DNA from: Shigella phage A2
Length of the DNA stretch: 64,000 nucleotides
Strand: one strand, 5' to 3'
Sequence record: OP197928
In this document: piece after piece, positions 12,160 to 59,846 of the stretch
Position numbering within the stretch: position 1 is the first letter of the stretch
Layout: every line of letters starts with the position of its first letter
Program-made: the position numbers and the translations under genes
Notes under the pieces: generated by a model
Database searches by the model: none
What the model was told of the DNA's origin: nothing
The model's input: the letters and a program-made list of their open reading frames with translations, nothing else

Positions 12160-12762
12160 TTATAGATTAAATCCTTCAAAATCAAGAGTATAGATAGTGT
12201 ATGTTGAATACTTTTTATACTCATATCTATCTGCAATTCTAAATACACTTCCAGCTGGTATCATTACTTCTTGTTCATCTGAAACTAATTCCATATTACG
12301 ATAACGATGGCTATCCGGAAACTTAAAGTTTGGATTGTATTCTTTACAGCGTAGAGCTTTTATAGCATACTCCTGGAAATTGAATACCATAGGAGCTTTG
12401 AATTCAAAAATAACTTGTGTGTTATACTCTAAACCAGAAGCAAAATGTAGAGCTATATTTTTATCGTATGAAGCTGATACGACTTTATCAAATGTAATAA
12501 TATCAATTCCTTGATTTAATATTTGTTTAGTCTCAACTGGAACACCTCTCCAAAGAGGTTTATCGTTTGGAACCAAACGAGATTTGATTATTTCATTTAA
12601 CCAAGTATGGTCATCTGGTTTATTAGTAATACAATGAATTAAAAGTTCAATTTCAGATAAATTAAACCCTTCAGAAAGTAATTCTTCACGAATAGAAGCA
12701 CGCACCGATGCATCCATTGATTTTATTTTAAAATCTTTTAGTTGCATTATTGAGTATTTCAT
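12160..12762 (-). CDS. modA: ADP-ribosyltransferase ModA, 200 aa
   Basis: 200 aa, paralogous to adjacent 207-aa gene; size and order as in T4 modA/modB. Confidence 0.7.
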   Translation of the reverse strand: MKYSIMQLKDFKIKSMDASVRASIREELLSEGFNLSEIELLIHCITNKPDDHTWLNEIIKSRLVPNDKPLWRGVPVETKQILNQGIDIITFDKVVSASYDKNIALHFASGLEYNTQVIFEFKAPMVFNFQEYAIKALRCKEYNPNFKFPDSHRYRNMELVSDEQEVMIPAGSVFRIADRYEYKKYSTYTIYTLDFEGFNL

Positions 12763-13382
12763 TCAACTACCTCAATATCATAAACTTTAAATGTTCCAAA
12801 TGAATCGTGTAATTTTTCTTTTGAAATAGAAGTTATTCTATACTTTCCAATTGGAATCATCCATTCTTGTTCATGCACAATCATCATTAAGTTATCAGTA
12901 CGCTCTGAATCTAACCCATCAGTATCTTCATATGTATACTTAAACTCAGTATTAGGAGAAGAAAGTATAATATCGCTGATATGGTCAGAATAATTAAAAG
13001 CTTTATCAGTTTTTAAACGAAGTATTGTTTCAGTGAAATATTCAGCATAAGAAAAAGAACACGCTGTATGCAAACTAGTAGTAAATGAATCTACCCTGTT
13101 CGTTGAAAACACTTCTCCAACTTGTAAATCTTTAATAAGTTCTTTTGTCGATTTTGATATACCACGATATAATTGATAAGGCGATTTAGTTAAATGCTTT
13201 TTAATGATTTTATTCAACTGCCTATGAATAGCTTCATTCTTTTTGGCTTCCATACATTGCCAAAGAACAGACTGCTCAAAGTCAGTAAATTTTTCACAGA
13301 CTTTTTTATACATATCATATTGAAAATCAACGCTTTCAGCTTTTATAGATAACTGTTCAACATCTGCAGGATTAATAATCAT
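12759..13382 (-). CDS. modB: ADP-ribosyltransferase ModB, 207 aa
   Basis: 207 aa; R-S-E type ART arrangement (..YRGISKSTKE..); early promoter immediately upstream. Confidence 0.7.
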   Translation of the reverse strand: MIINPADVEQLSIKAESVDFQYDMYKKVCEKFTDFEQSVLWQCMEAKKNEAIHRQLNKIIKKHLTKSPYQLYRGISKSTKELIKDLQVGEVFSTNRVDSFTTSLHTACSFSYAEYFTETILRLKTDKAFNYSDHISDIILSSPNTEFKYTYEDTDGLDSERTDNLMMIVHEQEWMIPIGKYRITSISKEKLHDSFGTFKVYDIEVVE

Positions 13383-18208: not shown

Positions 18209-18565
18209 TTAACCTCTATTCATAAAAGCATTAAAAATTTGGTCATCAATCGATGGAATAGCAACTTTTTCTGCATCATTTAACAAATCATTAATTTCAT
18301 CAGATAGCATAACACATGTATCTTTATTTCCTGTAATTGTTACTGCGCAATTACGAACATTTTCTTTATTAAATTTTAGGTTAATATTTTCGTAATGAAA
18401 ATCCTTTAATGCTGAATATATTTTTAAAATAAAATTGTCTTTTACTACAATAAACCCAACCTCACTATTAAAACGTGGTTCATGGAAACTGTAATAAACC
18501 TTTTCATCTATAAAATCGTATGAAATTTTTTCCATTTTTAAATATGAAAATTCAGAACTATACAT
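18209..18565 (-). CDS. hypothetical protein (61.1 position), 118 aa
   Basis: minus-strand ORF. Confidence 0.5.
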   Translation of the reverse strand: MYSSEFSYLKMEKISYDFIDEKVYYSFHEPRFNSEVGFIVVKDNFILKIYSALKDFHYENINLKFNKENVRNCAVTITGNKDTCVMLSDEINDLLNDAEKVAIPSIDDQIFNAFMNRG

Positions 18566-18577
18566 ATCAACCTCTAA

Positions 18578-18871
18578 TTACTCACCTACCACTTCAGCGA
18601 TGATATTTTTGTTATTAAAGTTTTTATCGCAATACAGAACATAATTATACTGCATTACACCACCAGACTTAAGCTGTTTTTGTACTTCAGCTTTCATTTC
18701 AGGACGATCACGCTCAACGATATTCATAATATCCGCTTCAATTTGAGTTTCAACTTCAGTCTGATCTGCAGTCATAGACCATTCACACAAATCTTTATCA
18801 TAACCTGCCATAGCAGGCTGAGCAGCACAAGAAGCCAAAGTAAAAATTGTAGCAAAAATAAATTTTTTCAT
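18578..18871 (-). CDS. sp: periplasmic protein, probable Spackle (Sp, superinfection exclusion), 97 aa
   Basis: signal peptide MKKFIFATIFTLASCAAQPAMA; 97 aa; in the 61.x cluster as T4 sp. Confidence 0.55.
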   Translation of the reverse strand: MKKFIFATIFTLASCAAQPAMAGYDKDLCEWSMTADQTEVETQIEADIMNIVERDRPEMKAEVQKQLKSGGVMQYNYVLYCDKNFNNKNIIAEVVGE

Positions 18872-56688: not shown

Positions 56689-57270
56689 CTAACCAAGCTT
56701 TTTAGTTAATTCATTCCAATGTTTTCTGCACAAAGAAACATAAATTTCATCACCAATACAGATTTGATTACCTTCTTTAACTGGTGTTCCATCTTCCATT
56801 AATCGAGCTGTCATAATCGCTTTTTTGCCGCAATGACAAACTGCCTTTAGTTCAATAAGTTTATCTGCAATCGCTAAAAGTTCTTTAGAACCTTCAAACA
56901 ATTTTCCAGCGAAATCAGTCCTTAATCCATAAGCCATAACAGGAACATTATATGTATCAACAATTCGGCTTAATTGGTGCACCTGTTCAGTTTTTAAAAA
57001 CTGAGCTTCATCTACAAATACGCAATGAATATCTTTTTGTGCTTCAGCCCATTTATAGAACTCGAAAATATCCATATCATCTGTAATAATATTCGCTTCC
57101 TGTTTAATTCCAATGCGAGAAACAACTTCACAGACAGAATCGCGAGTATCAATAGCAGGCTTAAGAACTAATACACTCATTCCACGTTCTTTATAATTAT
57201 GTGCAGCAGTCAAAAGAGAAGCAGATTTTCCAGCATTCATTGCTGCATAAGTAAAAATTAAACTCGCCAT
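56689..57270 (-). CDS. tk: thymidine kinase, 193 aa
   Basis: P-loop AAMNAGKS, C-terminal Zn-binding Cys; 193 aa. Confidence 0.9.
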   Translation of the reverse strand: MASLIFTYAAMNAGKSASLLTAAHNYKERGMSVLVLKPAIDTRDSVCEVVSRIGIKQEANIITDDMDIFEFYKWAEAQKDIHCVFVDEAQFLKTEQVHQLSRIVDTYNVPVMAYGLRTDFAGKLFEGSKELLAIADKLIELKAVCHCGKKAIMTARLMEDGTPVKEGNQICIGDEIYVSLCRKHWNELTKKLG

Positions 57271-57279
57271 ATCACCTTC

Positions 57280-57465
57280 TTAAAGCGTATTCACATAAGC
57301 TATTAATTCATTTTCTTTCTTATCAAACCGATCAGCAAATTCTTCCTGCTGTTCTGGAGATAGCGGGCCGTATTCATCATAAAAGGTGTTTGCTTCTATA
57401 TGCTCATCTAGAAGTTCATGGATAAGCTCAAACAATTTATCTTTTTGTTCTTTGCTTAGGCTCAC
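57280..57465 (-). CDS. hypothetical protein, 61 aa
   Basis: minus-strand ORF. Confidence 0.45.
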   Translation of the reverse strand: MSLSKEQKDKLFELIHELLDEHIEANTFYDEYGPLSPEQQEEFADRFDKKENELIAYVNTL

Positions 57466-57638
57466 AGTATGTCAATCCCCAAAAGTTTTAAAATGACTCG
57501 TTTCTGATTCATAACCGCTACGATTGAATGACCGTTGGGGTCTTTTTGACCCGATCCAATTATAAATCCTTTTTGTGCAGAAAGTTCAATCAAAACATCA
57601 AGTTCACGTAATAATTGATATTTTAAATCATCATTCAT
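57462..57638 (-). CDS. hypothetical small protein, 58 aa; not in ORF track
   Basis: ATG 57636-57638; MNDDLKYQLLRELDVLIELSAQKGFIIG...; 4-nt overlaps on both sides. Confidence 0.35.
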   Translation of the reverse strand: MNDDLKYQLLRELDVLIELSAQKGFIIGSGQKDPNGHSIVAVMNQKRVILKLLGIDIL

Positions 57639-57862
57639 TTTGGTTTACCTTCTTTAACGAAATCAGGATAAGGATAAAATCCCGAATAAAATCCTTCACC
57701 TTTATGATTGATGCATCCTTTATTAGAACAATAGCACCAATAATCGAAATCACAAGCCATTTCATCGTTGCATAAAGCAAAAACAACCGGCCACTTACAC
57801 TTTTCACAGTGGGCATTTTTAAGAATATTAGTTTGGCTCATAACCATGTAACCTTTAAGCAA
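57635..57862 (-). CDS. cysteine-rich small protein (8 Cys), 75 aa
   Basis: CEKCKW...C..DEMAC.F.YWCYCSNKGC. Confidence 0.45.
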   Translation of the reverse strand: MLKGYMVMSQTNILKNAHCEKCKWPVVFALCNDEMACDFDYWCYCSNKGCINHKGEGFYSGFYPYPDFVKEGKPK

Positions 57863-58050
57863 TATTCTTCTACATGTTGTTTACGACCTTTCTTATCAAT
57901 AAAGGTATATTCAACGAATGTTCCAATGTAGTCTTTATCTACATCATGTGGACTATTAATTGGACATTTAGTACGGCAAATGCGTTCCCATTGACGAATA
58001 ATTACTGCTTTGTTTTTAGGATCAAACGGATGCGGGTAATGTACTTTCAT
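57838..58050 (-). CDS. hypothetical protein, 70 aa
   Basis: minus-strand ORF. Confidence 0.45.
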   Translation of the reverse strand: MKVHYPHPFDPKNKAVIIRQWERICRTKCPINSPHDVDKDYIGTFVEYTFIDKKGRKQHVEEYCLKVTWL

Positions 58051-58501
58051 AATCCACCACTATTAAATCAATATCAGGAGTAAACATGTCGATTAATTTA
58101 GAAACCTTATCCCAATCGCCGCCAGCAATACCACAACCTATGCGTGGAATGTAAATTACTGGTTTAAACAAAAGGGTTTCTGCCTGTAGATTTAATTCTA
58201 TCATGCAGTTTACTAAAGCACCATAATCAAGATTAGGACCTGGTTCGTATTGCGTATACAAGTTATAACATATACCAAAACCATTAGGTTTATGTTTAAA
58301 AACAATAGACATATCGCCTAATTTATCACGAGAACCGTACTCAGTAGTGGTTTTATCTATTTCTAAAATTTTAGGATAGGCTCTTGCTAATTGACCCGCT
58401 ACACCTGAACCCATAGTATGAAAACAATTGCACCCGTGCGCAATAATATTACCTTGAAGAAATAGGGCGACAATATCGCCCTTGATATATTTTACAATCA
58501 T
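58022..58501 (-). CDS. macro-domain protein (putative ADP-ribose binding/hydrolase), 159 aa
   Basis: GDIV..(x)..NIIAHGCNC..MGSGVAGQLARAYP and C-terminal PRIGCGIAGGDW resemble macro-domain signature motifs (GDIT..VNAAN..GGGGV.GAI, ..STGVYGYP). Confidence 0.5.
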   Translation of the reverse strand: MIVKYIKGDIVALFLQGNIIAHGCNCFHTMGSGVAGQLARAYPKILEIDKTTTEYGSRDKLGDMSIVFKHKPNGFGICYNLYTQYEPGPNLDYGALVNCMIELNLQAETLLFKPVIYIPRIGCGIAGGDWDKVSKLIDMFTPDIDLIVVDYESTLPASV

Positions 58502-58839
58502 CTAGTACTCAATCCTCGATTATAAGAATCTACCAAACGGTCAACCATTGAATGACAAGCGGCTTTATCTTTTTCCTCCGCAACTGAACATTCTAAGGTA
58601 TTCCACTTTTTAGCATATCGTTTTAACAATGTATCATTTTTGTATCTGCTTGATTTATCTCTTTCTCCGTCTTTATATGCATATATTAATTTCTGTGCAA
58701 ATTCAGCTTGGCATGCTTTATTTTTCCCGCAATAATCCGCTGCAGTACGGTTTACATACTCTCTAATTTCAGTATATGATGTATCTGCTAACGCAGAAAA
58801 TGAAATTAATCCTATACATAAAACCAAAATTTTAGTCAT
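58498..58839 (-). CDS. secreted protein, 113 aa
   Basis: signal peptide MTKILVLCIGLISFSALA; 4 Cys. Confidence 0.5.
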   Translation of the reverse strand: MTKILVLCIGLISFSALADTSYTEIREYVNRTAADYCGKNKACQAEFAQKLIYAYKDGERDKSSRYKNDTLLKRYAKKWNTLECSVAEEKDKAACHSMVDRLVDSYNRGLSTR

Positions 58840-59377
58840 TTACTATTTCCAAAAGTTTATTATTTTTAAGGTAATTAGCCTTTTCTAGGACTTCAGAAGC
58901 ATATTTAGAGCCTGCTTTAACATTCCATCCCGAATTATAAGAGGATATTGCTTTTCTTATATCGCCCTTATGTATATTTAACCAATAAGAAAGTTCAATG
59001 TACGCCCAGGAAGCTGAATTGGATCGTTTATTCAACATTCTTTTTATTTCAGCATCGGTCATATTATAACCAAGTTCCTTAACTCTTGCTCGCATAGTAG
59101 GCAAATAATTTTGGAACATTCCATAAGCGTGATGCTTTGGTTTAGATTTTAAATTAACTCCGCCAGAGCTTTCTTGCCATAAAATAGCAGCCATTATATG
59201 ACCTAATCCGCTCTTGTGGATATTTTTGTGTGTTTTATATTTTCCATCCTTAGAAAACTGTTCCCCGAATTGATACGCGTAACGCATGTTATCGAGTTGG
59301 ACATTACTGAAAGTATGCTCGGAGCTATGTGCCATCATTGAAATGGCCAATAGACCAGCGAGTAGTGCTTTTCTCAT
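58832..59377 (-). CDS. secreted lytic-transglycosylase-like (SLT domain) protein, 181 aa
   Basis: signal peptide; SLT-like motifs WQESSGG, YGMFQ, SSYNSGWN. Confidence 0.5.
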   Translation of the reverse strand: MRKALLAGLLAISMMAHSSEHTFSNVQLDNMRYAYQFGEQFSKDGKYKTHKNIHKSGLGHIMAAILWQESSGGVNLKSKPKHHAYGMFQNYLPTMRARVKELGYNMTDAEIKRMLNKRSNSASWAYIELSYWLNIHKGDIRKAISSYNSGWNVKAGSKYASEVLEKANYLKNNKLLEIVND

Positions 59378-59384
59378 GCTTACC

Positions 59385-59846
59385 TCATTGAGTTTTAATT
59401 ACTGCTTTAGAAGCCTTTCCTGGTAAACGACGACTATTGATAATTGCCATCCTGCACTGGAGTGACGGGTTTTTGAACTTCTCATTAGGCTTACAAACTG
59501 TAAATCCAAGCCAAAGATTTCCATCTGTGATTTCTAAACGTCCAGGACGATATTCAACCCCATCAATAAAATCCTCGTCAATGTCAGGACGCGGAGGCAT
59601 ACTCAGGAATTCATTAACTTCTAAAACATGGTCTTTTATTTTATGGAATAATTCAAAAACATATGTCTCATCAATCTCCCGTTGAATTGCACGATCAAGA
59701 AGATGCTGAGAATATTTTAGATGAAACGATGAGACCCCTGCTGCTTTTGATGCCTCACGAATCTCATTGTTAATTTGACGAAACTCCGACTCAAAGTGAC
59801 GACGAAGCTTATTTCGACGGATAAAAACTTCTGTATTGATAGTCAT
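59385..59846 (-). CDS. regB: endoribonuclease RegB, 153 aa
   Basis: 153 aa, MTINTEVFIRRNKLRRHFESEF...; early promoter upstream. Confidence 0.9.
   Translation of the reverse strand: MTINTEVFIRRNKLRRHFESEFRQINNEIREASKAAGVSSFHLKYSQHLLDRAIQREIDETYVFELFHKIKDHVLEVNEFLSMPPRPDIDEDFIDGVEYRPGRLEITDGNLWLGFTVCKPNEKFKNPSLQCRMAIINSRRLPGKASKAVIKTQ

Follow-up and report, generated by a model that had tools for sequence, protein, structure and literature searches.

Shigella phage A2 carries a divergent allele of the T4 anti-DarT gene tk.4 (adfM), encoding an ALC1-like macrodomain with a glutamine at the catalytic lysine position

Phage macrodomains that undo the action of DarT2 have already been documented, by genetics in T4 and by biochemistry in PhiKZ. 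When a saturated T4 transposon library was screened by HIDEN-SEQ on a DarTG2 host, tk.4 was the sole significant hit, and a clean knockout of the gene sensitised T4 to DarTG2, with the gene being renamed adfM, for anti-DarT factor Macrodomain (bioRxiv 10.1101/2025.11.20.689424, November 2025). In keeping with this finding, a T4 mutant without adfA and adfN had earlier been seen to retain its DarTG2 resistance (PMC11825919), which implies the presence of another factor. In PhiKZ, the protein gp104, independently named AdfM, removes thymidine-linked ADP-ribose (T-ADPr) from single-stranded DNA in vitro (PMC13309987). Among bacterial enzymes, SCO6735 of Streptomyces coelicolor outpaces both DarG and TARG1 in hydrolysing ADP-ribosylated thymidine (dT-ADPr) in DarT-modified DNA; it does not act on guanosine-ADP-ribose, and it protects E. 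coli against DarT (PMC9411070). Here we describe the tk.4 gene in a 64,000-nucleotide stretch of the genome of Shigella phage A2 (record OP197928), to which we refer as the window. The product of this gene, A2 Tk.4, probably strips ADP-ribose from DarT2-modified thymidines in phage DNA using a glutamine-type, lysine-independent active site, a reading drawn from the orthology of the gene with T4 tk.4/adfM and from the SCO6735 biochemistry, the same activity being presumed for an allele 57% identical to that of T4.

The tk.4 open reading frame (ORF) occupies positions 58022..58501 on the minus strand, starts with ATG and encodes 159 amino acids; the motifs quoted for it in the original prediction, which was made from the letters of the window alone, are all seen in the translation (GDIV, NIIAHGCNC...MGSGVAGQLARAYP and PRIGCGIAGGDW). 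Phage A2 is T4-like and belongs to the genus Tequatrovirus, with the 2.3 kb surrounding tk.4 being 99.2% identical to phage GiZh. T4 shares the gene order regB-vs.1-vs-tk.4-tk.3, and the gene holds the same position in GiZh and in a Dhakavirus. A2 Tk.4 aligns with T4 Tk.4 at 57% identity and 74% positives, with no gaps over 155 amino acids (E = 1e-69), and by its position the gene is orthologous to T4 tk.4. Relatives of the protein were found by tblastn in 2,773 phage records and are encoded at no fewer than 500 bacterial genome loci. Because of these phage relatives and bacterial loci, together with the Pfam Macro score and a confident AlphaFold2 model, tk.4 is a genuine gene whose similarity to macrodomains is not due to chance.

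The assignment of A2 Tk.4 to the macro domains, which had been proposed from its motifs, is supported by profile search, structure prediction and fold search alike. The Pfam Macro profile (PF01661) is matched with E = 6.2e-8 and a score of 33.1 bits, exceeding the gathering cut-off of 22 bits, and of the 118 profile positions, 2-117 are covered by residues 22-136. A model made by AlphaFold2 from 54 homologues (predicted local distance difference test, pLDDT, 93.5; predicted template modelling score, pTM, 0.89) predicts a three-layer alpha/beta/alpha macro fold in which the glycine-rich loops are present. The best fold matches of this model are the ALC1-like macrodomains Bt_1257, DarG, Poa1p and TARG1, human TARG1/OARD1 (4J5R) being the top match in Foldseek (E = 5e-10), and profile searches yielded 77 bits for Bt_1257/SCO6735, 65 for TARG1 and 47 for DarG. 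The protein belongs to the ALC1-like class (TARG1, DarG, Poa1p, SCO6735), whose members come ahead of MacroD-type and viral macrodomains as its structural neighbours. The motifs with which it had been compared, VNAAN..GGGV and ISTGVYGYP, are ones that we take to be those of MacroD-type or viral macrodomains. The net charge or isoelectric point of the protein was uninformative as a hint of DNA binding, as PhiKZ gp104 is as acidic as Tk.4.

The putative active site is formed by three conserved segments. The first ADP-ribose-binding loop comprises residues 22-36 (HGCNCFHTMGSGVAG; 58394..58438, minus strand) and includes the invariant His22 and Asn25; altogether, H22, G23, N25, C26 and G33 do not vary in 54 relatives. 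Asn25 aligns with Asn22 of DarG, and mutation of its counterparts, Asn27 in SCO6735 (PMC9411070) and Asn23 in PhiKZ gp104 (PMC13309987), lowers activity. The second segment, NLYTQ (residues 80-84; 58250..58264, minus strand), places Gln84 where TARG1 (K84) and DarG (K80) have their catalytic lysine, the FPTK of DarG being replaced by LYTQ in the HMMER and MAFFT alignments. None of N80, Y82 and Q84 varies among the 54 relatives from phages or metagenomes or among the 77 from bacteria, and they lie outside the patterns used to retrieve the bacterial loci. The third segment is the second glycine-rich, phosphate-binding loop (residues 119-130, PRIGCGIAGGDW; 58112..58147, minus strand), which is nearly identical to the corresponding loops of SCO6735 (PRIGCGLAGGTW) and Bt_1257 (PRIGCGLAGGKW). 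In TARG1, DarG and Bt_1257, the stretches MGSG (30-33) and GCGIAGG (122-128) have aligned counterparts in the glycine-rich loops, which in macro domains bind the diphosphate and distal ribose, and the catalytic Asp125 of TARG1 corresponds in the alignment to Ala126. Across all 131 relatives, H22, N25, N80, Y82, Q84, P119, G122, G124 and W130 are invariant, and all nine residues are found in both the A2 and the T4 allele.

The exchange of lysine for glutamine might suggest an inactive or purely binding macrodomain, an interpretation that we dropped, since SCO6735 with the same glutamine is highly active on dT-ADPr DNA and requires that residue. In SCO6735, the equivalent of Gln84 is the essential Gln85, an equivalence taken from the statement in the paper; the Q85A and Q85E variants are inactive and N27S is nearly so (PMC9411070). 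A2 Tk.4 thus carries an SCO6735-type catalytic set consisting of His22, Asn25, Gln84 and the glycine-rich loops.

Comparison with the individual members of the class indicates where A2 Tk.4 departs from each of them. SCO6735 (5E3B) and Bt_1257 of Bacteroides (2FG1/2AFC), which are 54% identical to one another, are Gln-type ALC1-like proteins with about 26-29% identity to A2 Tk.4; their genes are bacterial and are not phage counter-defence genes. Their subclass is defined by a 'mobile loop' that exceeds those of TARG1 and DarG by five residues, a feature that A2 Tk.4 lacks; in Bt_1257, six residues are inserted right after the glutamine when it is compared with the Tk.4-family profile, and here the A2 protein has the short form. 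TARG1/OARD1 shares the fold class at about 20% identity, and its Lys84/Asp125 dyad is replaced by Gln84/Ala126. TARG1, too, reverses thymidine ADP-ribosylation by DarT. In the DarG macrodomain (T. aquaticus 5M31, M. tuberculosis 5M3I) the catalytic lysine lies in FPTK, and DarG is extended at its C-terminus by a domain that binds DarT and is encoded next to darT, whereas the neighbours of tk.4 are vs and tk.3. The NCBIfam DarG model (NF048014) gave A2 Tk.4 27.7 bits against a cut-off of 250, matching model positions 2-142 of 338, and in the PADLOC DarG model positions 3-144 of 329 were matched, indicating that in both cases the macro part alone is shared and that the 159-residue protein has no C-terminal DarT-binding domain. 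A tblastn search of the window with P. aeruginosa DarT2 returned no match, within the limited sensitivity of a single-sequence search. We rejected the idea of an orphan antitoxin derived from DarG, as A2 Tk.4 scores below the DarG cut-off, has neither the catalytic lysine nor the C-terminal domain and is nearer to Bt_1257/SCO6735 and TARG1.

The same comparison separates A2 Tk.4 from the PhiKZ protein. PhiKZ gp104 keeps the DarG-type FPTK and barely aligns with A2 Tk.4 in BLASTP (23 bits); two different macrodomain subfamilies thus carry the name AdfM, which in PhiKZ denotes a DarG-like protein of the Lys type and in T-even phages a protein of the Gln type that resembles SCO6735.

In the mechanism that we envisage, the enzyme would be made within the regB-vs.1-vs-tk.4-tk.3 gene run. 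Host DarT2 would place ADP-ribose on thymidines of single-stranded phage DNA and thereby block replication, and the macrodomain would bind this ADP-ribose between the glycine-rich loops MGSG and GCGIAGG, with Gln84, held by Asn25, positioning the distal ribose. The thymine N-glycosidic bond would then be cut by an activated water molecule without a covalent lysine intermediate, as proposed for SCO6735, releasing free ADP-ribose and leaving intact DNA on which replication could continue. The matches of the PADLOC and NCBIfam DarG models to the macro part are in line with such an activity, and the suggestion in the original prediction that a phage macrodomain could reverse host-imposed ADP-ribosylation, e.g. 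by a DarT-type defence, matches the published genetics of the T4 orthologue.

Several observations weigh against an anti-DarT2 role. A2 Tk.4 differs in 43% of its residues from T4 Tk.4, the allele with the DarTG2 phenotype, and all the evidence from T4 comes from genetics, enzymatic removal being described in the preprint as something that 'seems likely' (bioRxiv 10.1101/2025.11.20.689424). The Tk.4 family is without the longer loop of SCO6735 and Bt_1257, and Ser32 occupies the position in the MG-x-G loop where Bt_1257 has a lysine. That lysine is probably the counterpart of SCO6735 Lys34, a residue important on DNA (PMC9411070). At 80 bacterial genome loci, no DarT gene was detected by tblastn beside the relatives of tk.4. 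Finally, every invariant residue of the Tk.4 family is also present in Adpp, an ADPR-1''-phosphate (ADPR-1P) phosphatase, so that the choice between the two substrates cannot be made from sequence.

Adpp is a Poa1p-like Macro protein encoded in 15% of phage NARP1 operons, which overcome the RES-domain defence aRES, by which NAD+ is turned into nicotinamide and ADPR-1P (bioRxiv 10.64898/2026.01.28.702374, January 2026). By analogy, A2 Tk.4 might act mainly as a phosphatase like Adpp or Poa1p, converting the ADPR-1P formed by RES-type NAD+ phosphorylases (aRES, RES toxins) to ADP-ribose and thus either detoxifying the metabolite or feeding a pathway that rebuilds NAD+; we consider this unlikely, although it is the main rival reading. 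Purified Adpp of Vibrio phage Gary converts ADPR-1P to ADP-ribose, as shown by liquid chromatography-mass spectrometry (bioRxiv 10.64898/2026.01.28.702374). This protein (GARY_182, encoded between Adps-like and Namat genes) is 40.6% identical to A2 Tk.4 over 143 amino acids (E = 2e-23) and shares all family-invariant residues, with a loop after the glutamine that is longer than in the T-even proteins. Poa1p of yeast is likewise among the top sequence and fold matches, sharing the fold and the H-x-C-N-C motif, and its His23, which was mutated by the depositors of 6lfs, corresponds to His22. At the position of Gln84, Poa1p presumably has a serine. The gene is labelled 'phosphatase' in some records (RefSeq, Pharokka-style, PHROG 335) and 'macro domain protein' or 'Poa1p-like' in others; the first of these labels, as used in RefSeq and PHROG 335, probably goes back to likeness to Poa1p and Adpp, and PHROG 335 does not discriminate, as it includes Tk.4, Adpp and PhiKZ gp104.

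The genomic setting speaks against the phosphatase alternative. Adpp lies inside an Adps-Adpp-Namat operon and its proven substrate is a free metabolite rather than DNA, whereas the A2 gene is flanked by vs and tk.3, and the search of the 64-kb window revealed no homologue of Adps or Namat. T4-type phages are not known to carry NARP1. Among the 77 relatives from bacterial or metagenome-assembled genomes, five to six adjoin Namat and/or Adps genes, which favours the phosphatase, and T4 Tk.4, by a wide margin the nearest relative to have been characterised, has a DarTG2-specific phenotype, which does not. Adps, Adpp and Namat are all required to overcome aRES (bioRxiv 10.64898/2026.01.28.702374), so a lone phosphatase would not restore NAD+; given that Adps and Namat are missing from the window, a NARP1-type role is unlikely here.

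The phosphatase and anti-DarT2 activities are not mutually exclusive. Removal of dT-ADPr and dephosphorylation of ADPR-1P both take a group off the ribose 1'' position, and we tentatively raise the possibility that Tk.4-family macrodomains are general ribose-1'' hydrolases acting on both substrates, with the divergent T-even alleles differing in their best substrate or in the defence they counter. If this were true, one small phage enzyme with a lysine-free, Gln-centred site would counter both DarT2 and RES/aRES defences. The presence of Adpp, with a different proven substrate, in the Gln-type family means that a Tk.4-like gene cannot be annotated as 'anti-DarT2' or as 'phosphatase' by homology alone. 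The A2 allele by itself adds little to this, because T4 tk.4 has already been named adfM and its role is largely explained; however, tk.4 alleles of 57% identity in closely related T-even phages represent natural variants for tests of substrate range.

ADP-ribosyltransferase genes of the phage itself are also present in the window, as had been stated in the original prediction: modA (12160-12762, minus strand; 200 amino acids, 98.5% identical to the annotated GiZh protein) and modB (12759-13382, minus strand; 207 amino acids, 97.6% identical to the annotated GiZh protein). Considering that macrodomains in general can erase protein ADP-ribosylation, A2 Tk.4 might reverse or tune what Alt, ModA and ModB do to host proteins by ADP-ribosylation or RNAylation, a role that we regard as highly improbable. 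The ADP-ribose attached by Alt, ModA and ModB is arginine-linked, which counts against such a reversal, and we know of no ALC1-like macrodomain that cleaves this linkage. With tk.4 located 45 kb from modA and modB there is no gene linkage, and many of the Klebsiella, Vibrio and Pseudomonas phages that encode Tk.4 relatives belong to groups that are not known to have Mod enzymes. SCO6735 and TARG1 do remove ADP-ribose from proteins, but the linkage is to Glu/Asp, and the substrates of SCO6735, the closest characterised enzyme, are dT-ADPr and these Glu/Asp-linked marks (PMC9411070), which offers no basis for the reversal of ModA/ModB marks that had been suggested. In T4, moreover, tk.4 is non-essential except on DarTG2 (bioRxiv 10.1101/2025.11.20.689424).

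Degradation or sequestration of ADP-ribose-derived immune signals, e.g. gcADPR or His-ADPR of Thoeris, had been suggested as well. One metagenomic phage relative of tk.4 lies within about 4.5 kb of the anti-defence gene Acb5, and nothing points to Thoeris; the known anti-Thoeris proteins described in the Thoeris/Migulavirinae paper are sponges or active-site blockers with other folds, and T4 tk.4 was identified with DarTG2, no phenotype with a signalling system having been reported for it. We judge this role to be extremely unlikely. Papers on CmdTAC and on Thoeris/Migulavirinae mention macrodomains, and not the tk.4 protein.

Although A2 and T4 share the locus, the gene itself is strikingly divergent. 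Counted in successive 100-column blocks of a MAFFT alignment, the flanks (tk.3, vs, vs.1, regB and beyond) show 92-100% DNA identity to T4, and the first 100 nt of tk.4 are 88% identical, whereas identity falls to 50-59% in the remaining ~375 nt (58027..58401). Within codons 34-155, 26 of the 60 conserved amino acids are encoded by different codons in the two phages, and this pattern points to an old, exchanged allele rather than to recent fast evolution. Both alleles are widespread: the A2-type allele (identity of at least 90%) is found in ~312 phage records and the T4-type in ~224, with a further 159 at 80-90%. The nearest allele outside the genus, in a Dhakavirus, is 74% identical and has the same position. 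At the protein level, T4 Tk.4 has 155 residues and A2 Tk.4 has 159, owing to four additional C-terminal residues that accompany a longer overlap with tk.3. The invariant residues, including His22, Asn25 and Gln84, are common to both proteins, whereas loop 2 reads GAGIGKGNW in T4 and GCGIAGGDW in A2, the latter being nearer to the family consensus.

Two further loci differ between these phages. The tk.1/tk.2 region (57289-57836, minus strand) matches T4 weakly, with 67% identity over 176 nt and no match at 57465-57836, and A2 has a Phage_zn_bind protein gene between tk and tk.3 where T4 has two PHROG-653 genes; the region appears to be a second replaced segment beside tk.4. At 18209-18871 (minus strand), a 118-amino-acid ORF (18209-18565) directly adjoins sp (18578-18871) in A2, whereas in GiZh, the closest relative, a gene encoding a 210-amino-acid gp61.2 (annotated as similar to RB69 gp61.2, AdfA family) is inserted between a 118-amino-acid 61.2-like ORF and sp. 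With this gene present in GiZh and not in the window, a second anti-DarT locus likewise varies between near-identical phages.

In bacteria, the recurrent neighbours of the relatives at the 80 loci are of a housekeeping kind (ileS, rpoC, EamA, an EEP-family gene and a semialdehyde dehydrogenase gene), or else NARP1 genes. Six loci in assemblies labelled as bacterial have Tk.4-family genes adjoining Namat and/or Adps homologues, and these NARP1-AP-like operons may belong to prophages or mis-binned phage contigs. At another six loci (Hyphomicrobiaceae, Jannaschia) the Tk.4-like gene lies directly downstream of ileS on the same strand, an alphaproteobacterial linkage that may reflect a single inherited arrangement, as the taxa are related. 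We also considered whether the macrodomain beside a class I aminoacyl-tRNA synthetase gene, seen at seven alphaproteobacterial loci, echoes T4 vs, the modifier of valyl-tRNA synthetase, but the synthetase is IleRS and the arrangement is hence a coincidence.

Around tk.4, the genes on the minus strand are arranged in the order tk (56689-57270), tk.2, tk.3, tk.4, vs, vs.1 and regB (59385-59846, minus strand), with ends that overlap or abut. Downstream of tk.4 lie tk.3 (DUF7202, minus strand) and tk.2, which encodes the Cys-rich protein matching the Phage_zn_bind profile (57635-57862, minus strand); upstream lie vs (58498-58839, minus strand), encoding a 113-amino-acid 'valyl-tRNA synthetase modifier', and vs.1 (58832-59377, minus strand), encoding an SLT-domain protein. 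These coordinates and profiles, together with signal-peptide-like N-termini, agree with the earlier description of the tk-regB interval as an operon-like run including a Cys-rich protein, a secreted protein and an SLT-like enzyme. The stop codon of vs (ORF end at 58498) and the start codon of tk.4 (at 58501) form an ATGA overlap (58498..58501, minus strand) through which the two genes are likely to be translationally coupled. The 3' end of tk.4 overlaps the start of tk.3 by 29 nt according to the ORF coordinates (58022..58050, minus strand), compared with 4 nt in T4. A scan of promoters and terminators gave no signal, with 19 promoter-like sites against 21 expected by chance.

Codons 7-13 of tk.4 contain a GC-rich hairpin, AGGGCGA-tattg-TCGCCCT (58464-58482), which is terminator-like on both strands. 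It is kept in T4 and has one loop change in a Dhakavirus; as it encodes the conserved KGDIVAL, its conservation may simply reflect that of the protein. The hairpin sits in the 5' part of the gene that is 88% identical to T4, immediately before this identity drops.

The N-terminus of Vs is signal-peptide-like (MTKILVLCIGLISFSALA|DTS; mean Kyte-Doolittle value over 12 residues 2.7), an odd feature if, as described, Vs binds an enzyme of the cytoplasm. In minimal medium, no T4 gene was more strongly depleted in the HIDEN-SEQ data than vs, and its deletion impaired plaque formation there (bioRxiv 10.1101/2025.11.20.689424). Vs.1 also starts with a signal-peptide-like sequence (MRKALLAGLLAISMMAHS), and its match to the SLT lytic transglycosylase domain is weak but above threshold (25.1 bits vs 21.3), so that by its sequence the protein looks like a periplasmic murein-cleaving enzyme.

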